A stretch of DNA of 35,833 nucleotides from a virus (taxonomy: Duplodnaviria; Heunggongvirae; Uroviricota; Caudoviricetes), in IMG/VR virus record IMGVR_UViG_2565956762_000002, positions 1 to 35,833 of that record, one strand, 5' to 3'. The first letter of the stretch is position 1. Each line of letters begins with the position of its first letter. Positions 1-12,020 of the stretch are shown piece after piece. Made by a program: the position numbers and the translations under genes. A model generated the notes under the pieces. That model ran no database searches, was not told where the DNA came from, and was given only the letters and a program-made list of their open reading frames with translations.

Positions 1-1521
1 TTATTCAGGCTTTAATTTATTGATAATAGAATCTACCATTTTAATGCCTGCCTCATTGACTATGACTGAATTGACTACTCTATCAAAATAGTCTTCTATA
101 TGGTGGGAAAATAGGAAAGCAGCACTTGATGGTTTTTTGTTCTTTTCAACTGCAGATTGCAAGACTTCATGAGGCGGAATTTTAAACCTTTTGCATGATG
201 CAATGAGATATTCAAACTCTTCAAATGATAGACAAAAAATATTCTCTGTAGGGATATGATAGTTATGTTTAAACTTGTCATATATCTTATTCATCTCATC
301 TTTAGCATAAGTATTAGCTAGGATACTACCATTGCCTAAGAAAAGGTTTTTATATGTAATGCAAATGATATATGAGTTAGCCCTGAATGGAGCTATTATT
401 CGCTCATTAGAGTATATTTCTCGATTAACTTCGTGAGATTGTTCGATTGCTTTTAATACCGATTTCTTTATTTTTCCTGCAATATCCTCAGGGCGTAATG
501 TTACCATGCCTTTTTGGTGTATCTCAACGCCTTTAGCATCAATGAAAATATTTGCCTCAGTATGTGGAATGAAATAATCAACTACTTTATTATCTTTAGG
601 TAGTCGTTCTTTAAGGTATTTTTCGTTATGAAAATCAATTTCGCTTTCTTTTAGTATTAATTCCAGTGCATTTTCAAATACATTTCCAAAGCTATCCATG
701 AACTTCTCGGCATCAGTTCTTCTTAAAAGATCATATATGAACGTCTGTATGCTTGTTGAAGTCAGTTGTGTGTGTATCTGAAAATACTCTGAACCTTTTT
801 TTATTAATGGTTTTTCAAGAAAAGGTGATGATGAGTAGTATTCAAGCAAAGGTTTATCATAGGTTTTTGATTTGCAAAATGTAGATAGTTCATTGTAATT
901 TATTGATATTGCATCAAGAAATTTCTCAATGGTATTTCTAGGAATGATGTCAAATAATATAGTAAATGTATCTACATTCATTTTTCTCACGGGATGCTCT
1001 TCTGTTATGTGAGTTATTAATATGTAAGATAGCTTAAGAAAGTCTTCGATAGATACATTCGTGATAGTAAAAAAACTTGTCTTTATTTTATGGTTTTTTT
1101 CAAGTTCTGAAAATAGAAAGACTTGTCTGCTAATTGTGTTTAGAGCGTCAATTTTCTGGTAGATTCCTTGTTGGTATAGATTATTTCTAATGAAGAAATG
1201 CATGCCATTCTTCCTCTCAAGACCGATAGGAATAATGTTCAAGGTTTCATAAGTTTTTTGGAAGAGTTTTATTGCTTGATTTTTATCGAGGATTTTGAAT
1301 TTTTTATTCTTGCCAGTTACTGACGCAGACCACTTTAGACATAAATTAACAATCCAAGGCATGTGTCGTAACATGTGGATATTATCTTCAAATTTTTGTA
1401 AGTTATATTGCATACACAATTCGATAAATAAATCAGGGGAATAACCTTGGATTTCTGAACGAATAGCATCCATTCTTAACTTTGCAACCGCATCAGATTG
1501 AATATCTAATTTTTGAATCAC
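1..1521 (-). CDS. Hypothetical 506-aa protein, integrase-adjacent cargo gene
   Basis: Uninterrupted minus-strand ORF ending with TAA at 1-3. GTG start at 1519-1521 lies 13 nt downstream of the int stop and is preceded by GGAGA (revcomp of 1526-1530), suggesting co-transcription with int. Visibly AT-rich versus the phage backbone. No motif I can assign. Confidence 0.6.
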   Translation of the reverse strand: MIQKLDIQSDAVAKLRMDAIRSEIQGYSPDLFIELCMQYNLQKFEDNIHMLRHMPWIVNLCLKWSASVTGKNKKFKILDKNQAIKLFQKTYETLNIIPIGLERKNGMHFFIRNNLYQQGIYQKIDALNTISRQVFLFSELEKNHKIKTSFFTITNVSIEDFLKLSYILITHITEEHPVRKMNVDTFTILFDIIPRNTIEKFLDAISINYNELSTFCKSKTYDKPLLEYYSSSPFLEKPLIKKGSEYFQIHTQLTSTSIQTFIYDLLRRTDAEKFMDSFGNVFENALELILKESEIDFHNEKYLKERLPKDNKVVDYFIPHTEANIFIDAKGVEIHQKGMVTLRPEDIAGKIKKSVLKAIEQSHEVNREIYSNERIIAPFRANSYIICITYKNLFLGNGSILANTYAKDEMNKIYDKFKHNYHIPTENIFCLSFEEFEYLIASCKRFKIPPHEVLQSAVEKNKKPSSAAFLFSHHIEDYFDRVVNSVIVNEAGIKMVDSIINKLKPE

Positions 1522-2548: not shown

Positions 2549-3181
2549 TCAAAGGCTCTTAATGATTTTCAGTGCGCGGCCTATTACCTCAATGTCATCC
2601 AGTTCGCACTCAAACGATGAATCATCCTGATGCACTACTAATCTGTTTCCCGGGAGTCGTGTCAATTTTACAATGCTTTTTATCCCGTCGATGTCCACTA
2701 ACCACGTACCATTTACTGGTGGTGTTTGGTTGCGATCTATTAAATAAGAATCACCAGAAGTAGTCACCAGCAGCAGGTTGCTTGAGTCTGAGGGGAGTAT
2801 GCTGCTATCAATGATTGCTTTTCCAGCATCGATCAGCAAACCTCCGTTGAGAGTTGCCTTGTCAATTTCAGGAGATACAAGCTCCGAAAGAGGTTTAACT
2901 TTGCTAGAGTTCACGGAATTGATATTTTTTTTAGGGTCAATGTTTGAACCTGGATCGCCCTGTCCGGTAGTTAGCCACAGTAAAGAAACTCCTGTTTCCA
3001 AAGCGCACTGAATCACCCATTCTGCAGGAAAACTATCTCTTAAGTATCTGTTTGCCATAGTGCTTTTTGATGCGCCCAAGTGATCGCAAAGTTGCTGTCT
3101 GGACTTGAAATCATAGGCTGCCATTAGCCTATGGATAGCCTCTCTTCCCCCTGTATTCTCGCCAGCTTTTACTTGTATCAT
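2549..3181 (-). CDS. cI: Immunity repressor, 186 CI-like
   Basis: 210-aa ORF between int and the divergent early operon. Motifs recalled from 186 CI (NRYLR ... CALETG ... LWLTTGQG ... GTWLVDIDG ... LTRLPG ... FECELDDIEVIGR). Confidence 0.85.
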   Translation of the reverse strand: MIQVKAGENTGGREAIHRLMAAYDFKSRQQLCDHLGASKSTMANRYLRDSFPAEWVIQCALETGVSLLWLTTGQGDPGSNIDPKKNINSVNSSKVKPLSELVSPEIDKATLNGGLLIDAGKAIIDSSILPSDSSNLLLVTTSGDSYLIDRNQTPPVNGTWLVDIDGIKSIVKLTRLPGNRLVVHQDDSSFECELDDIEVIGRALKIIKSL

Positions 3182-4905: not shown

Positions 4906-5132
4906 TGGCTGATGCAATGGATCTTGTACAGCAGCGCGTTGAAGAAGAACGCCAGCGCCATATTCGTGCTGCCCGTGCCAAAACGCCGGGCGTGTCCCGC
5001 GTGCTTTGCATTGAGTGTGAAGCGCCAATTCCGCCAGCACGCCGCCGCGCCATTCCAGGTGTGCAGCTTTGCATTACCTGTCAGGAAATCGCAGAGCTGA
5101 AAGGCAAACATTACAACGGAGGTGCTGTATGA
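4905..5132 (+). CDS. TraR/DksA-family C4 zinc-finger protein
   Basis: 75 aa with CxxC-(17)-CxxC (CIECEAPIPPARRRAIPGVQLCITC), typical of phage TraR-like proteins; start overlaps the previous stop. Confidence 0.8.
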   Translation: MADAMDLVQQRVEEERQRHIRAARAKTPGVSRVLCIECEAPIPPARRRAIPGVQLCITCQEIAELKGKHYNGGAV

Positions 5133-5986
5133 GCACCATCCTGAAATGGGCGGGAAATAAAACCGCCATTATGTCCGAACTGAAAAAACACCTTCCTGCT
5201 GGCCCGCGACTGGTTGAACCTTTCGCGGGTTCCTGTGCTGTGATGATGGAGACGGATTACCCCAGCTATCTGGTTGCGGATATTAATCCTGATTTAATCA
5301 ACCTCTATAAAAAGGTTGCCGCTGATTGTGAATCGTTTATATCTCGCGCCAGAGTTTTATTTGAGATCGCAAACAGGGAGGTGGCTTATTACAACATAAG
5401 GCAGGAGTTTAATTACTCCACTGAAATTACTGATTTCATGAAAGCGGTATATTTCCTGTATCTCAATCGTCACGGTTACCGTGGTTTATGTCGCTATAAC
5501 AAGAGCGGGCATTTCAACATTCCCTACGGTAATTATAAAAATCCGTATTTCCCTGAAAAAGAAATTCGCGCATTTGCAGAAAAAACCCAGCGGGCAACGT
5601 TTATTTGCGCCAGCTTTGATGAAACGCTGGCGATGTTGAAGGCGGGGGATGTGGTGTATTGCGATCCGCCGTATGACGGCACGTTTTCCGGTTATCACAC
5701 TGACGGCTTCACTGAAGATGACCAGTATCACCTGGCATCCGTTCTTGAACATCGGTCATCAGAAGGACATCCGGTCATTGTTTCTAACAGTGACACATCC
5801 CTGATCCGTTCGCTGTATCGCAATTTTACTCACCACTACATCAAGGCAAAACGCAACATCGGTGTGGCAGCTGGAGAGGGTAAATCAGCAACAGAAATCA
5901 TTGCTGTTTCCGGGCCGCGCTGCTGGGTGGGATTTGATTATTCGCGTGGCGTGGACAGTTCTGCCGTGTACGGAGTACGTGCATGA
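5129..5986 (+). CDS. dam: DNA adenine methyltransferase (Dam-like, N6-A MTase)
   Basis: N-terminal SAM motif region LKWAGNK, FAGSCAV and catalytic DPPY ([10 protein letters not shown]). Start chosen at ATG 5129 ([11 protein letters not shown]) rather than the upstream in-frame 5069. Confidence 0.9.
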
Positions 5987-8397
5987 GTCATGCCGATATG
6001 AACAACTGCTGCGGCTTTAACGAGGCTGCCGCAGCATTCTCATGGAACAGCCCGAAAAAGGCCATTAACCCTTATCTGGACCCGGCGGAAGTTGCGCCGG
6101 TTTCTGCGCTTTCAAACCTGATCACTCTGTACGCTGCCGATAACGAGCAGGAACAACTGCGCCGCGAGGCACTGAGTGATCAGGTCTGGGAGCGTTATTT
6201 CTTTAATGAATCCCGTGATCCTGTCCAGCGCGAAATGGAGCAGGATAAGCTAATTAGCCGGGCAAAGCTGGCGCATGAGCAGCAGCGTTTTAATCCAGAC
6301 ATGGTCATTCTGGCGGATGTCAACGCCCAGCCTTCCCATATCAGCAAGCCGCTGATGCAACGTATTAAATACTTCAGCAACCTGGGCAGGCCAAAGGCCT
6401 ATTCCCGCTATTTGCGTGAGACGATTAAGCCATGCCTGGAACGACTGGAGCATGTACGCGACAGCCAGCTATCTGCATCTTTTCGTTTTATGGCAAGCCA
6501 TGAAGGGCTGGACGGTCTGCTGAGCCTGCCTGAAATGAGTCAGGATCAGGTGAAACGCCTGTCCACCCTTGTCGCTGCGCATATGAGCATGTGTCTTGAT
6601 GCCGCTTGTGGTGATTTGTACGCCTCCGATGATGTTAAGCCGGAAGAAATCCGCAAGACATGGGAAAAGGTGGCAGCAGAAACCCTGCGACTGGATGTCA
6701 TACCGCCTGCGTTTGAGCAACTCCGCCGGAAAAGAAACCGCCGCAAACCTGTGCCCTATGAACTCATTCCGGGTTCGCTGGCGCGTATGCTGTGCGCCGA
6801 CTGGTGGTATCGGAAATTATGGAAGATGCGTTGCGAATGGCGGGAAGAGCAGTTGCGTGCTGTCTGTCTGGTCAGCAAAAAAGCATCTCCCTATGTCAGC
6901 TATGAAGCCGTGATGCATAAACGTGAGCAGCGCCGTAAGTCGCTGGAGTTTTTCCGTTCTCATGAACTGGTGAACGAAGACGGCGACACGCTGGACATGG
7001 AGGATGTGGTAAACGCCAGCAGCAGCAACCCTGCGCATCGCCGCAATGAGATGATGGCCTGTGTTAAAGGCCTGGAGCTTATCGCGGAAATGCGCGGTGA
7101 CTGCGCCGTTTTCTACACCATCACCTGTCCGTCACGTTTCCATTCCACGCTAAATAACGGCAGGCCCAACCCGACCTGGACAAATGCGACGGTAAGACAA
7201 AGCAGTGATTATCTGGTTGGCATGTTTGCTGCATTTCGTAAGGCGATGCACAAAGCCGGATTGCGCTGGTATGGCGTGCGGGTGGCTGAGCCGCATCATG
7301 ACGGTACAGTTCACTGGCACCTGTTGTGTTTTATGCGCAAAAAAGATCGCCGCGCCATTACTGCTTTGTTGCGTAAGTTTGCCATTCGTGAAGACCGCGA
7401 GGAGCTGGGGAATAACACGGGACCACGCTTTAAGTCTGAGTTGATTAACCCGCGCAAAGGAACGCCGACAAGCTACATCGCGAAATATATCAGTAAGAAC
7501 ATTGACGGGCGTGGTCTGGCTGGCGAGATCAGCAAGGAAACGGGTAAATCCCTGCGTGATAACGCTGAATACGTGAATGCCTGGGCGTCTCTGCATCGTG
7601 TTCAGCAATTCCGCTTCTTTGGCATTCCGGGGCGTCAGGCTTACCGTGAACTGCGATTGCTGGCTGGTCAGGCGGCAAGGCAACAGGGTGACAAAAAAGC
7701 AGGTGCGCCGGTACTGGATAACCCGCGCCTTGATGCAATCCTGGCTGCTGCTGATGCTGGTTGTTTTGCCACCTACATCATGAAGCAGGGCGGCGTACTG
7801 GTTCCCCGTAAATATCACCTCATCAGAACTGCTTATGAAATCAACGAAGAGCCGACCGCCTATGGCGATCACGGCATTCGTATTTATGGCATCTGGTCAC
7901 CTATTGCAGAGGGCAAGATCTGCACTCATGCCGTGAAGTGGAAAATGGTTCGTAAGGCCGTTGACGTTCAGGAGGCGGCAGCCGACCAGGGCGCTTGCGC
8001 CCCTTGGACTCGTGGCAATAACTGTCCCCTTGCTGAAAATTTGAACCAACAAGGGAAAGACAAATCAGCTGATGGGGATACCAGGACGGACATTACCCGC
8101 ATGGATGACAAGGAGTTGCACGATTACCTGCACAGTATGAGCAAAAAAGAGCGCCGGGAACTGGCTGCAAGGTTACGCCTGGTGAAACCGAAACGGCGTA
8201 AAGACTACAAACAGCGAATTACAGACCATCAGCGACAGCAGCTCGTCTATGAACTGAAGTCAAGAGGATTTGATGGCAGCGAGAAAGAGGTCGATCTGCT
8301 CCTTCGCGGTGGCAGTATTCCGTCAGGAGCAGGCCTGCGTATCTTCTGTCGGAACCAGCGTTTGCAGGAAGATGATAAGTGGCGAAACCTGTATTAA
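5983..8397 (+). CDS. A: Replication initiation protein A (rolling-circle initiator, P2 gpA family)
   Basis: 804-aa ORF at the conserved position after the early genes; HxH motif (VHWHLLCF) and size consistent with P2/186 A. Confidence 0.9.
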
Positions 8398-8489
8398 TTA
8401 CGCGGGTTAACAATTCGTGCTCTTAATAATACCAGGCATATCAGGCTGATGAACGTAAAAAAACGTTTTACATCAGTAAGATTATTATA

Positions 8490-8509
8490 TACTGTAAATA
8501 TAAACAGTG
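8490..8509. promoter_or_regulatory. LexA (SOS) box
   Basis: TACTGTAAATATAAACAGTG matches the CTGT-N8-ACAG consensus exactly; located upstream of the small ORF and DinI-like gene. Confidence 0.6.
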
Positions 8510-8550
8510 GCTATGCATACAGTGTTGCTTGTGGTGTCATAGGAGGAAAG

Positions 8551-8739
8551 ATGCAGGACTATTTTTTGGAGTCTTTGAAGCTCCAGCGCATTGATTTTTT
8601 TCTTAAGCTTGTAGCGGCTAGTGAGTGTAGTGATGAAGAGAAGGGGCTGGCTTTGCAGTGGGTTTCTGAACTGACAGATGAACTCATGGCAAAAATCAGA
8701 ACTCACGAATACAACCGCTCAATGGATGTCATCAGCTGA
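8551..8739 (+). CDS. Small hypothetical protein, possible Tum-like antirepressor N-terminal part
   Basis: ATG at 8551 preceded by strong RBS AGGAGG; 62 aa; immediately downstream of the LexA box. Confidence 0.5.
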   Translation: MQDYFLESLKLQRIDFFLKLVAASECSDEEKGLALQWVSELTDELMAKIRTHEYNRSMDVIS

Positions 8740-8749
8740 GGTGACTTTT

Positions 8750-8983
8750 ATGCGCATTGAAATAATGATCGATAAAGAGCAGAAGATTAGCCAGTCTACC
8801 CTGGACGCCCTTGAATCCGAGCTTTACCGCAATCTGCGCCCCCTGTATCCCAAGACGGCGATCCGCATTCGCAAAGGCAGTGCCAACGGTATCGAGTTGA
8901 CCGGCTTAAAACTTGATGAGGATAAGCAGCGGGTAATGGAAATTATGCAGAAGGTGTGGGAAGACGACAGCTGGCTGCATTAA
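8750..8983 (+). CDS. DinI-family protein
   Basis: MRIEIMIDK ... QRVMEIMQKVWEDDSWL resembles DinI; the frame is open upstream to 8678, overlapping the preceding ORF. Confidence 0.75.
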   Translation: MRIEIMIDKEQKISQSTLDALESELYRNLRPLYPKTAIRIRKGSANGIELTGLKLDEDKQRVMEIMQKVWEDDSWLH

Positions 8984-9117
8984 GAAACGTTGCTGGCGTC
9001 TGAACTTGTTTCTGGCGTCAGCAAGGTTGAACAACGAGCCCTTGCGAGGCGTTAGCTCTGTAGTGCATGTCTATGCTGCATGAGATCGCATGATCGTTTG
9101 AGGATCGTTTTTGCTAA

Positions 9118-9143
9118 GGCCCGCCAGAACTGGTGGGCTTTTG
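9118..9143 (+). terminator. Rho-independent terminator of the early operon
   Basis: GGCCCGCCAG-AA-CTGGTGGGC hairpin followed by TTTT. Confidence 0.5.
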
Positions 9144-9187
9144 CGTAGATCATGCAGGTGCATGAAAACCACTACATAAAGCGGGCA

Positions 9188-9292: not shown

Positions 9293-10372
9293 GTGGCGTT
9301 ATCAGATGCGTTAATTACAGTAAATCAAGCCGAACGGGGCGGTGAAAACGCGTTGAGAGGCTTTTCATATCAAGCCTCTTGGGGGATAAATTATTTACTT
9401 GAGAAACAAAAAGAAAAGGAGAAATATTTATTTCTATTTGAATATCATGACGATATTCTTGTATTGAATTCATCTGTTTCTCCGACTAGTGCTGAGTTTA
9501 TCCAAGTTAAAACAAAAAAAGATGGTAAATGGACACTCGCAGCAATAGTGAACGCAACAAAAGCTAAACCTAAATCATTTGTTGCAAAACTATATGACCA
9601 TTTCTATCAATTCGTTGGTCACGAAATTTATATGGTTCTGTTATCGAATGCTGGATTCGATTTCTTAAATGATAATAACGAAAAAGGTAGTGATCTTAAT
9701 AATGAGCATAAGGAAATTATAATTAGTAAGGTTCAAGAGCAGCTAAATACTAAAAAAGAAGTTCCTCTTGATAAAATAAAATTTAAAACATCTGATCTTA
9801 GTTTGTTAGATCCTAACTCACATTTATACGGGAAAGTTGCAGTTTTTTTGAATTCTTACTTTGGGGATGATCATGGTATTAATTCAACAGCATTCACTAA
9901 ATTATTAATCAATAAATGTAATGAGAAGGTTAGTGTTGCTTCTAGTGATATCAAAACTTTTGAAGATTTAGTACTAAAGAAAGGTATATCTTCAGAATTT
10001 GTAACTGATTTATTATCTGGACTCATTGCAAGCATAAAAATAACGCCAAAATGGGAACAGGTTTGTATGTTGCTTGGTACTTTCTCAGATCCTTATGAGG
10101 GGATTAAATTACAATCAGTTTTTACACGCATATCAATAAAAGTGCTCAATGTCAATTCAATATACTATCTTTATTTTCTGGAATTTCAATCGGCTCTAAA
10201 GATTATAGAGCATTATCGTGAGATACCTGTTCGAGACCTCTTCTTTACACTCGAAAAAACAATTGCAGCGGGGGGCGGGGATTTCTCTTTATTAAATCAA
10301 GAAGAGAAATTTATGATTGCTATATATGCAATTATAAAGTTGACTTTTGAGGATGTTTCTTATGAAGAATAA
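9293..10372 (+). CDS. Candidate defense effector: predicted PD-(D/E)xK-like (Cap4/DUF4297-like) nuclease
   Basis: 359-aa ORF with GTG start at 9293 in an AT-rich island. N-terminal motifs RGFSYQASW ... EYHDDILVL ... EFIQVKTKK resemble a restriction-endonuclease-like D...(E/Q)xK core. Confidence 0.7.
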   Translation: MALSDALITVNQAERGGENALRGFSYQASWGINYLLEKQKEKEKYLFLFEYHDDILVLNSSVSPTSAEFIQVKTKKDGKWTLAAIVNATKAKPKSFVAKLYDHFYQFVGHEIYMVLLSNAGFDFLNDNNEKGSDLNNEHKEIIISKVQEQLNTKKEVPLDKIKFKTSDLSLLDPNSHLYGKVAVFLNSYFGDDHGINSTAFTKLLINKCNEKVSVASSDIKTFEDLVLKKGISSEFVTDLLSGLIASIKITPKWEQVCMLLGTFSDPYEGIKLQSVFTRISIKVLNVNSIYYLYFLEFQSALKIIEHYREIPVRDLFFTLEKTIAAGGGDFSLLNQEEKFMIAIYAIIKLTFEDVSYEE

Positions 10373-12020
10373 CGTTAAATTTAAAAATATAAAAATACTC
10401 TCATTAAGAGACAGAAAAGCTTTTTCTTATGAGTTTTCAGAAGGGGTTAACTTCATATATGGTACAAATGATGTTGGTAAATCAAGCCTGATTAAAAGTC
10501 TTTATTACACATTAGGTGGAGATTTAAGGCTTGATGATGCTTGGAAATCAGATGATATAGTTACACTGGTGGAAATTAATAACGGGGAAAATGATTTTAT
10601 TTTTTTACGTTATAAAAAGATTATTGGTGTCTTTGATTTGAAGAATGATGATCTAGTCGTGTATAACACGATTTCGTCATTAGCATCTCGTGTTTCAAAT
10701 ATATTTGGTTTTAAACTGGAATTACATAATAAATATACGGGTGCTACGACTCAGGCAAACCCTGCTTGTTTGTTTGCCCCATTCTTTATTGATCAGGATG
10801 AAGGATGGAAAGCGGTGATAAATTCTTTCGAAAACATGAGTATGTACTCAGAATGGCAAAAAAACATTCTTTACTATCACTCTGGAATTAAGCCAAAGGA
10901 ATATTATACAGTTCAAGGGAAAATCAAAGAAATTAAAGTTAAAATTTCAGAGTTAGATGGTTTTGTTAAGGTTCTAAAAAGAAGCAAAAGTAAGATTGAT
11001 GAATCTTTTGGCGTGGTTTTATTTGATGTTGATTTGGATTTTTATAAATCAAAGTTGGAACGTATATTAAATGAATATTCTAATTTGAATTTAGTTCAGA
11101 CAGAATATAGATTGAATCTTTTGAGGTTATATTCTAGGAAGAATTTCCTTGAGAGTGAACTCAAAGAGATAACTGCGATTATTGATAATGAATTTGAGAT
11201 TTCGAATTTTCGAGATGATAATGTTGCTTATTCAGTAAATGAATATAATTATATAAACCATAGAGATGAAATGCTCAAAAACATTGCTGTTCTTGCAGAT
11301 GAGAAAAGCAAGATTGAGGAAAATATTCCTAAATTGAATCAAAAGCTAGAAGAGTCAAGGGCTGCTTCAGAGGCGTTGCAGGCGCTGATTTTAGAAACTC
11401 AATCGGAAATAACGCTTCATGATGTTATTAAATCTGCTGCATACCATGAAATTGAATCTACTTTTATTTCACAGTTAGATGAGTTATTCGTTGAGATTGG
11501 TCGAAAAGAAGGCGAGTTGACAGAGTTACAAGAAGAATTAGAAGTATACAATGATAAGAAAAGAACTGTTAAAATAAATGACTGTTTCAAAGAGTATTTC
11601 GCTAAAGCTCTTAAAGAGCTTGGTGTCGAAAATACAAAGGTAGGTGGCCTTAGTAGTTATAATAATATTACTAAGGGCAAGACTGGTAGTCGAGGTCCTC
11701 GAGGTATATTTGCATTTCACTACGCGCTGCTTAGTGTTATGAAAAGCAACGCTTCAGTTGAGAATATGCCTATAGTAATAGACTCTCCAAAGCAACAAGA
11801 TTTGGATCCAGAGCATACGCATAAGCTTATAAAACTATGCTTGGATGGGTTTTCCCTTACAAATCAGATTATTATTGGAACTGTTGGTTATGAGAGTTTC
11901 ATGGATGGTTTTAATAGCATCAAACTTGAAAATAAATATCATCTTTTAAATGATGAACATTATGATAATGTTTATTCTCAATTAATGCCATTGTTTGAAC
12001 GGGTGATACTTTCAAGATGA
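10362..12020 (+). CDS. Candidate defense partner: SMC/Rad50-like ABC ATPase with long coiled-coil
   Basis: ATG at 10362 overlaps the upstream stop (ATGAAGAATAA); GAGGA lies upstream. N-terminal P-loop GTNDVGKSS, about 250 aa of heptad-rich coiled-coil, and a C-terminal head with MPIVIDSPKQQDLDPEHTH. Confidence 0.75.
   Translation: MKNNVKFKNIKILSLRDRKAFSYEFSEGVNFIYGTNDVGKSSLIKSLYYTLGGDLRLDDAWKSDDIVTLVEINNGENDFIFLRYKKIIGVFDLKNDDLVVYNTISSLASRVSNIFGFKLELHNKYTGATTQANPACLFAPFFIDQDEGWKAVINSFENMSMYSEWQKNILYYHSGIKPKEYYTVQGKIKEIKVKISELDGFVKVLKRSKSKIDESFGVVLFDVDLDFYKSKLERILNEYSNLNLVQTEYRLNLLRLYSRKNFLESELKEITAIIDNEFEISNFRDDNVAYSVNEYNYINHRDEMLKNIAVLADEKSKIEENIPKLNQKLEESRAASEALQALILETQSEITLHDVIKSAAYHEIESTFISQLDELFVEIGRKEGELTELQEELEVYNDKKRTVKINDCFKEYFAKALKELGVENTKVGGLSSYNNITKGKTGSRGPRGIFAFHYALLSVMKSNASVENMPIVIDSPKQQDLDPEHTHKLIKLCLDGFSLTNQIIIGTVGYESFMDGFNSIKLENKYHLLNDEHYDNVYSQLMPLFERVILSR

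Follow-up and report, generated by a model that had tools for sequence, protein, structure and literature searches.

Two small open reading frames follow a LexA box in this temperate-phage sequence, in different frames from one another. Do they form a genuine two-gene module or the halves of a single tum gene broken by a frameshift, and which of their products would act on the phage repressor? An initial annotation of the window, by which we mean the entire 35,833-nucleotide stretch of viral DNA analysed here, raised both options by comparison with the Tum antirepressor of phage 186, described there as one LexA-controlled protein of about 146 residues with a DinI-like C-terminal half; that description agrees with the 186 record (146 residues) and with Pfam and alignment results. 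We find two cistrons, each with its own Shine-Dalgarno sequence and start codon, behind one predicted LexA-controlled promoter. With good confidence, we interpret them as a two-cistron (tumA-tumB) SOS operon of a Fels-2/186-like temperate phage, in which TumA would be the antirepressor and TumB an accessory. The features of the locus are as follows.

8467–8472, + strand: TTTACA, the −35 hexamer of an SOS promoter corresponding to 186 p95, 17 nt 5′ of TACTGT and near-invariant in 35 sequences
8490–8495, + strand: −10 hexamer TACTGT, the left arm of the LexA box, in the same place as the annotated p95 −10 of 186
8490–8509, no strand assigned: predicted LexA operator (SOS box) TACTGTAAATATAAACAGTG, the sole CTGT-N8-ACAG of the window, with the box kept in relatives
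8541–8546, + strand: Shine-Dalgarno sequence AGGAGG of tumA, read directly from the sequence
8551–8739, + strand: tumA, encoding a 62-residue acidic helical-hairpin protein and putative CI antirepressor (homology to the N-terminal half of Tum, dN/dS, structural model)
8738–8743, + strand: tumB Shine-Dalgarno sequence GAGGTG, which overlaps the stop codon of tumA, read directly from the sequence
8750–8983, + strand: tumB, encoding a 77-residue DinI-family protein (Pfam DinI, alignments, dN/dS)
8990–9024, + strand: long hairpin without a U-tract, directly after tumB (RNA fold of 8975–9160, z = −4.4)
9116–9145, + strand: probable intrinsic terminator, a G+C-rich stem followed by UUUUG (RNA fold)

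The surrounding genes place the operon in a familiar setting. The window carries an integrase gene together with homologues of CI, Apl and CII, and a gpA homologue (804 residues, Pfam Phage_GPA) ends at 8397, directly upstream of the operon. Over the 601 bases around tumA-tumB, twelve prophage records from Klebsiella pneumoniae (Kp4845-2 and others) show 100% identity, the paper describing these identical prophages being a purely in silico study, and many P2-like phages of Klebsiella, Escherichia and Salmonella show 92–98% identity. The CI of the window (210 residues, Pfam Phage_CI_repr and Phage_CI_C) shares 32% identity with 186 CI over its full length (E = 6e-34), and its CII is 71% identical to 186 CII. 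By gene content, the window is a Fels-2/186-like temperate Klebsiella prophage with a 186-type CI/Apl/CII switch. A Pfam search of the window CI detected no peptidase or self-cleavage domain, and SOS induction of a prophage with such a repressor would therefore need an antirepressor.

The LexA box had been called perfect, a description that fits its core and not its full length. In the candidate operator at 8490–8509, TACTGTAAATATAAACAGTG, the CTGT-N8-ACAG core is intact, whereas the 20-mer as a whole agrees at 17 of 20 positions with TACTGTATATATATACAGTA, which we take to be the LexA consensus. One copy of the core motif is present in the 35.8-kb window, with 0.56 copies expected by chance, and this count by itself is not significant. 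The box is nevertheless more than a chance match, because it is conserved across orthologous loci. With a single protein of the window, we found 33 such loci in one-genome-per-species data, from Escherichia, Citrobacter, Klebsiella, Raoultella, Enterobacter, Lelliottia, Leclercia, Kluyvera, Buttiauxella, Serratia, Pantoea, Tatumella, Erwinia and Siccibacter. In 31 of the 33, a CTG-N10-CAG box lies no more than 220 nt 5′ of the small gene; of the other two, one is on a contig that stops 53 nt upstream and one has a disrupted copy. A LexA-type box also precedes the gene in 186, in PSP3 and in Yersinia phage vB_YenM_06.16-2.

In an alignment of 35 distinct upstream regions, the TACTG and CAGT arms and the TTTACA −35 hexamer are near-invariant, and the TACTGT −10 hexamer is invariant among relatives, whereas the sequences of the 17-nt spacer and of the flanks are free to differ; the box averages 1.55 bits of information per position, compared with 0.80 and 0.83 in its flanks. 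This pattern is, to all appearances, the footprint of a promoter whose −10 element is buried in the LexA site, as annotated for 186 p95. The layouts match: TTCACA, 18 nt and TACTGT in 186, and TTTACA, 17 nt and TACTGT in the window. Transcription would start at about position 8502. A generic promoter scan did not report the SOS promoter at 8467–8495, because TACTGT agrees with TATAAT at only three of six positions.

Behind this promoter, the 62-residue frame with a strong ribosome-binding site described by the initial annotation is present as stated, with AGGAGG at 8541–8546 before the ATG at 8551 and a TGA stop codon at 8737–8739. The left boundary at 8449 that had been given for the module does not hold for the gene. 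It is the first ATG of the longest open reading frame in the same frame (96 residues), and it is not the tumA start because it lies upstream of the promoter. Similarly over-extended calls of 84–109 residues are present in several database entries. At 90% identity the family falls into 484 clusters, and at 50% identity into 66 (from 1.8 billion representatives), of which almost all are 50–100 residues long; TumA is exactly 62 residues in 29 of the 31 loci examined. Relative to the window copy, tumA has dN/dS values of 0.04–0.14, with synonymous sites near saturation. An AlphaFold model (pLDDT 85.7) contains two helices, at residues 2–22 and 28–61, and TumA is accordingly predicted to be an acidic two-helix hairpin, a generic fold. 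A Foldseek search of this model against the PDB returned nothing at E ≤ 0.001, and the family profile found no relative among PDB sequences. There is no curated family for TumA in Pfam or NCBIfam, and PHROGs gives the label ‘unknown function’. In hundreds of records, the small gene is named ‘hypothetical protein’ or, wrongly, ‘levan regulatory protein’.

The DinI-like frame continues without a stop codon as far back as an ATG at 8678 and overlaps the first frame, as the initial annotation noted. The real start of tumB, however, is the ATG at 8750, which follows the tumA stop codon after a 10-nt gap and opens a frame that closes with the TAA ending at 8983. In relatives, the corresponding gap of 9–12 nt holds a purine-rich GGGGA or GAGG motif. 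The Pfam DinI family (PF06183) matches TumB over its full length with E = 1.4e-24, and TumB aligns with residues 71–145 of 186 Tum (40% identity, E = 1e-24), the alignment beginning exactly at the internal GTG start of 186 tum. TumB is also 84% identical to PSP3 TumB and 88% identical to Fels-2 STM2726.1. Values of dN/dS relative to the window copy are 0.02–0.08, and by this comparison TumB is more strongly conserved than TumA. With E. coli chromosomal DinI, TumB shares the Pfam domain, including the acidic C-terminal ...VWEDDSW; its score of 54.1 bits, however, does not reach the 111-bit cut-off of NF007893, the NCBIfam equivalog for chromosomal DinI. By these scores, TumB is a member of the Pfam DinI family that would represent a phage paralogue and not an orthologue of DinI. 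The upstream in-frame extension of tumB (72 nt) was present in our first open-reading-frame scan only in the window and in two of the orthologous loci (L009 and L029), and the remaining copies found in that scan start at MRIEIM.

Are these two frames the remnants of one gene? In the window, the TGA at 8737–8739, the 10-nt gap and a change of frame part TumA from TumB, and the single-frame form is absent. A single 186-like tum of 146 residues, broken by a frameshift or a sequencing error to leave a pseudogene or a crippled induction system, would account for halves that lie in different frames and for a DinI frame that is open for 72 nt 5′ of its ATG and overlaps the first frame, and the fused form does exist in 186. 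The same two-gene arrangement, however, is shared by the 12 Klebsiella phage records of identical sequence and by some 55 further phage records, and the split recurs in the 33 genomes of many genera; both frames are under strong purifying selection, with dN/dS of 0.02–0.14 across the two, and each has its own Shine-Dalgarno sequence and ATG. Moreover, none of the 66 clusters at 50% identity joins a TumA N-terminus to a DinI C-terminus, and fusion is limited to a tight clade in which the N-terminal half shares at least 90% identity with that of 186, with more distant relatives being small stand-alone genes. The conservation data have already refuted this account, to which we attach a negligible probability.

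A programmed +1 frameshift at the tumA UGA (AGC U GAG GUG ACU UUU AUG), adding a 143-residue fusion to the separate products, is conceivable in that skipping the U of UGA enters the tumB frame with no stop codon between, and in that 186 yields full-length and truncated products from one locus. Against it, the distance from the tumA stop codon to the tumB ATG is 9, 10, 11 or 12 nt in relatives, so that all three relative frames (0, 1 and 2) occur and a fusion would require read-through, +1 or −1 shifting depending on the phage, with no single conserved mechanism. The junction contains no slippery sequence, its hairpin is not conserved in relatives, and re-pairing of the P-site codon AGC in the +1 frame is not possible. 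In addition, tumB is missing from 14 of the 33 loci, and we regard recoding as extremely unlikely. As judged from the aligned loci, none of mutation, sequencing error and programmed frameshifting can serve as a general explanation. Of the two options in the initial annotation, the two-gene module is thus the one borne out, by its occurrence in many genera, by purifying selection on both frames, by their varying frame relation and by descriptions of a split form in the literature; the frameshift option is contradicted by the conserved arrangement, the selection on both frames and the variable frame relation. The two genes are probably co-transcribed, and a promoter scan reported no promoter on the + strand between them.

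The orthologous loci also point to an unequal relationship between the two genes. In the same 14 loci that were counted against recoding, it is the position directly downstream of tumA that holds no tumB, and LexA-boxed tumA also stands alone in ESSI-2-like phages and in Yersinia phage vB_YenM_06.16-2. Across this set, TumA is the constant element and TumB is, by its distribution, an optional accessory.

Whether the first frame resembles the N-terminal part of Tum depends on the method of comparison. Pairwise BLASTP of the 62-residue protein against 186 Tum gave no alignment, and in this form the similarity suggested by the initial annotation fails; it is recovered by three independent profile methods and by a bridging sequence. 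A hidden Markov model built from the window protein and 29 relatives matches residues 6–48 of 186 Tum with 35 bits (E = 2.7e-9), whereas the highest-scoring of 10,000 shuffled decoys reached 10.7 bits. Alignment of the family to 186 Tum with hhalign gave a probability of 94.9% (E = 4.7e-8). In PHROGs, the N-terminal half of 186 Tum matches phrog_698, the family of the window TumA, with E = 5.9e-6, and the window TumA in turn matches phrog_8554, the family of the 186 N-terminal half, as well as phrog_1993, the family of PSP3 TumA (E = 0.0022). Finally, a 60-residue Yersinia phage ‘tum protein’ bridges the two, matching both by plain BLASTP (E = 2e-10 and 9e-8). TumA and Tum have in common the approximate motif L-[QE]-R-[IV]-x-[LMF]-x-[AL]-[RK]-L-x-A-x3-C-x3-[DE]-[KR]-x-[LI]-A-[LI]-x-[WL]-[IV]-[AS]-E-[LI]. 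On this profile evidence, we regard the homology of TumA to residues ~3–48 of 186 Tum as real.

The split two-gene Tum module is already known, the window copy being one more instance of the Fels-2 module. Tum has the look of an antirepressor joined to DinI, as Lemire et al. 2011 (PMC3121763) noted, and the portion of that paper dealing with Tum describes tum as split in two in Fels-2 and PSP3, with reference to Bunny et al. 2002 and to a personal communication by G. E. Christie. The Fels-2 operon likewise follows gpA, its promoter, LexA box and gene junction are almost base-for-base like those of the window, and its STM2728 product is identical to the window TumA at 61 of 62 residues, the sole change being S62N. 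In the Fels-2 record, a 62-residue ‘hypothetical protein’ precedes a DinI-family protein, itself annotated as ‘similar to TumB [PsP3]’. The two phages differ in CI (59% identity) and downstream of the operon, where Fels-2 keeps a 243-residue frame (the length of 186 orf97) and the window has a Lamassu defence system. In Salmonella LT2, according to the passage in which PMC12626290 summarises Bunny et al. 2002, all lexA-null survivors had lost Fels-2. A literature search on the names TumA and TumB returned unrelated papers only.

PSP3 resembles the window in having a two-cistron SOS operon with a LexA box after gpA, and its GenBank record describes tumA as ‘similar to 5' end 186 tum; UV induction of prophage’ and includes tumB. 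The PSP3 genes share a frame, with TAG and 3 nt between them, whereas those of the window lie in different frames across the 10-nt gap. PSP3 TumA (60 residues) belongs to the other subfamily, phrog_1993, and is weakly linked to the window TumA (E = 0.0022); the window-family model did not detect it (4.3 bits), and the link is drawn through PHROG 1993 and through 186 Tum as an intermediate. The portion of PMC3121763 concerned reports, second-hand and from a personal communication, that the upstream gene of PSP3 has antirepressor activity. The direct antirepressor evidence therefore comes from a phage whose TumA is of another subfamily, an observation that counts against our model.

In 186, the established route to induction runs from the LexA-regulated p95 promoter through Tum to sequestration of CI (PMC7708051). 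The 186 record annotates p95, a LexA site overlapping its −10 (TACTGT) and tum, together with three shorter in-frame tum products, the shortest from an internal GTG; this GTG has its own Shine-Dalgarno sequence and aligns with the tumB ATG of the window. The two phages share a promoter with the LexA box over the −10 element and a CI of the same Pfam families, that of 186 being non-cleavable. They differ in that 186 Tum is one polypeptide, with an extra linker of ~12 codons relative to PSP3, and in that 186 has orf97 downstream within the same operon. The clade of fused tum genes includes those of 186, BIS20 and EtG, of a series of Yersinia pestis phages and of some Klebsiella prophages. Because this clade is narrow and the internal Shine-Dalgarno sequence and GTG start have been retained, we infer that evolution ran toward the fusion, making 186 Tum the derived form.

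More distantly, the dinI-gfoA/gftA operons of Gifsy-1, -2 and -3 (Lemire et al. 2011, PMC3121763) are LexA-repressed and pair a DinI homologue with a small antirepressor of a non-cleavable repressor. By contrast with the window, dinI comes first in these operons, the phages are lambdoid and the repressor belongs to an unrelated family.

We propose the following sequence of events. In the lysogen, host LexA bound to the box overlapping the −10 element would keep the operon off, as it appears to do in homologues. Upon DNA damage, LexA would cleave itself and the operon would be transcribed. TumA, as homology and the work on 186, PSP3 and Fels-2 suggest, would then bind the 186-type CI and block it from its operators, and removal of CI would free the lytic promoter and lead to prophage induction. 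TumB, translated from its own ribosome-binding site, would probably modulate RecA filament activity and thereby the strength or duration of the SOS signal, acting as an optional accessory and not as an antirepressor. E. coli DinI modulates RecA filaments, and for its phage paralogue TumB this activity serves as an analogy only.

Could the roles be distributed differently? One reading is that TumB, or a complex of TumA and TumB, is the true antirepressor, with TumA, insufficient by itself, serving as a leader, a chaperone or a specificity subunit. In favour of this reading, 186 carries both parts in one polypeptide, the full-length Tum is annotated as inhibiting CI binding, and TumB is even better conserved than TumA. 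This assignment is nevertheless difficult to reconcile with LexA-boxed tumA genes that lack tumB (14 of the 33 loci, and the ESSI-2-like and Yersinia phages), and the annotation of 186 gives its DinI-only product a modulating and not a causal role in induction. In Gifsy prophages, non-polar dinI deletions leave induction unaffected (PMC3121763), and the antirepressor activity mentioned in the relevant portion of the same paper is that of the PSP3 upstream gene. We consider a TumB-centred antirepressor unlikely. It is very unlikely, in our judgement, that the SOS function of the 62-residue protein is unrelated to CI, for example that of a host-directed effector or of the ‘levan regulatory protein’ named in some sources. 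That TumA is without a curated family or solved structure and that its sequence does not co-vary with CI would fit such a role; the levan label, however, is without any support, TumA is homologous to the N-terminal half of 186 Tum, and a CI with no detected self-cleavage domain needs some antirepressor in a window where this operon carries the sole CTGT-N8-ACAG box.

A TumA antirepressor acting on CI would explain how this Klebsiella prophage responds to DNA-damaging antibiotics, and the same explanation would apply to a very common class of P2/186-like prophages in Enterobacterales. In this scheme, the repressor would remain uncleaved and a LexA-controlled antirepressor of 62 residues would act instead. 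The biology of the module was worked out two decades ago in 186, PSP3 and Fels-2, and the practical value of the present analysis is one of annotation, as no name for the tumA family exists in Pfam, NCBIfam or PHROGs, and its members are often called with a false upstream start that takes in their own promoter.

The pairing of TumA with CI may be the sole element with some novelty, in that a TumA identical to that of the window occurs beside CI proteins only 40–52% identical to the window CI. TumA is 100% identical in Klebsiella phage 4LV2017, Escherichia phage Cartapus and locus L009, whose CI proteins share 40%, 52% and 43% identity, respectively, with that of the window, and in a Pantoea stewartii prophage a Fels-2-type TumA (84% identical) stands beside a CI that is 60% identical to 186 CI. 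Across 24 loci, pairwise identities of TumA and CI showed no co-variation (Spearman rho −0.07), either for the N-terminal domain of CI (rho −0.01) or for the C-terminal domain (rho −0.10). Median pairwise identity in these loci is 84% for TumA and 45% for CI, and within CI the N-terminal domain is better conserved than the C-terminal domain (medians of 64% and 35%). The absence of co-variation is unlike what a simple one-to-one cognate antirepressor–repressor pair would give and, in this respect, counts against our model. We found no discussion of this mismatch in the literature.

Part of the mismatch is linkage, as tumA belongs to a conserved gpA block and the immunity region is exchanged. 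Beyond this, either TumA might recognise a surface that many 186-type repressors share, or certain combinations might not be SOS-inducible. Because identical TumA proteins stand beside divergent CI proteins and the two do not correlate across the 24 loci, it is possible, if on balance doubtful, that Fels-2-type TumA is a broad-specificity antirepressor directed at a surface conserved across heteroimmune 186-type CI proteins, the likeliest being the N-terminal DNA-binding domain. Were this so, one SOS-induced TumA could induce several P2-like prophages in a cell, in a cross-talk like that of the Gifsy phages, and immunity modules could be swapped without loss of SOS inducibility.

Several RNA elements accompany the operon. 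A hairpin at 8728–8745, reported by the terminator scan at the tumA-tumB junction, was considered as a translational-coupling element and rejected, as it is not conserved in relatives. The probable terminator at 9116–9145 went unflagged by the same scan because its T run consists of only four Ts. The long hairpin that directly follows tumB in the window lies directly 3′ of tumA in three of the loci that lack tumB (L018, L028 and L041).

Across the orthologous loci (L009-L041), TumA is highly conserved, with a median identity of 84% and often 100%, and the CI repressors that adjoin it are 34-93% identical to the CI of the window. The following features enter this and the next comparisons:

2549-3181, CI gene, compared with tumA (8551-8739)
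8728-8745, small hairpin that covers the stop codon of tumA and the Shine-Dalgarno sequence of tumB, flagged by a terminator scan
8990-9024, long hairpin 3' of tumB in the window

We looked among the loci for co-variation between the two proteins and found none (Spearman rho -0.07 for pairwise TumA against CI identity, 24 loci). At one locus, L030 of Pantoea stewartii, a 186-like CI is paired with a window-type TumA. Taken together, the presence of a conserved TumA beside divergent CI proteins, the lack of co-variation and the L030 pairing suggest either that TumA acts as an antirepressor of broad specificity or that modules are often swapped.

tumB, which together with the long hairpin 3' of it takes up 8750-9024 in the window, behaves as a presence/absence cassette. 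It is missing directly 3' of tumA in 14 of the 33 loci, and in three of these 14 (L018, L028 and L041) the long hairpin found 3' of tumB in the window directly follows tumA. The small hairpin at the tumA-tumB junction also occurs in L009, and Fels-2 has the same stem bases; in the more distant relatives checked it is not conserved, which makes a regulatory role improbable.

In P0139, a 52-aa metagenomic protein, residues ~1-36 of TumA run on in frame into residues ~11-26 of TumB, either through a natural deletion-fusion or as an artefact of assembly. In many public gene calls the TumA-type small protein is 84-109 aa long (8449-8739 in the window; database entries P0005, P0007, P0012 and others) because the ATG chosen as its start lies further upstream, ahead of the LexA-controlled promoter or inside it. 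In some sources the protein is called 'levan regulatory protein'.

Three further loci of the window concern genes outside the operon:

1-1521, minus strand, 506-aa ORF beside the integrase, located at the edge of the prophage and reaching the end of the window
5069-5986, plus strand, D12-class N6-adenine DNA methyltransferase (Pfam PF02086, E 2.3e-76)
9293-12020, plus strand, Lamassu anti-phage defence system, LmuA and LmuB (PADLOC matches)

The 506-aa ORF has no match in Pfam or PADLOC and is possibly cargo. The methyltransferase gene and the beginning of gene A overlap, an arrangement also seen in Fels-2; the gene annotated at this position in 186 is PAPS-reductase-like. The Lamassu system lies directly 3' of the tumA-tumB operon and comprises LmuA (359 aa; PDLC00243, E 1.7e-142) and LmuB (557 aa; PDLC00255, E 2.3e-253). 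In 186, by contrast, this position is occupied by orf97, and the ORFs found there in Fels-2 and EtG have the same 243-aa length as orf97.
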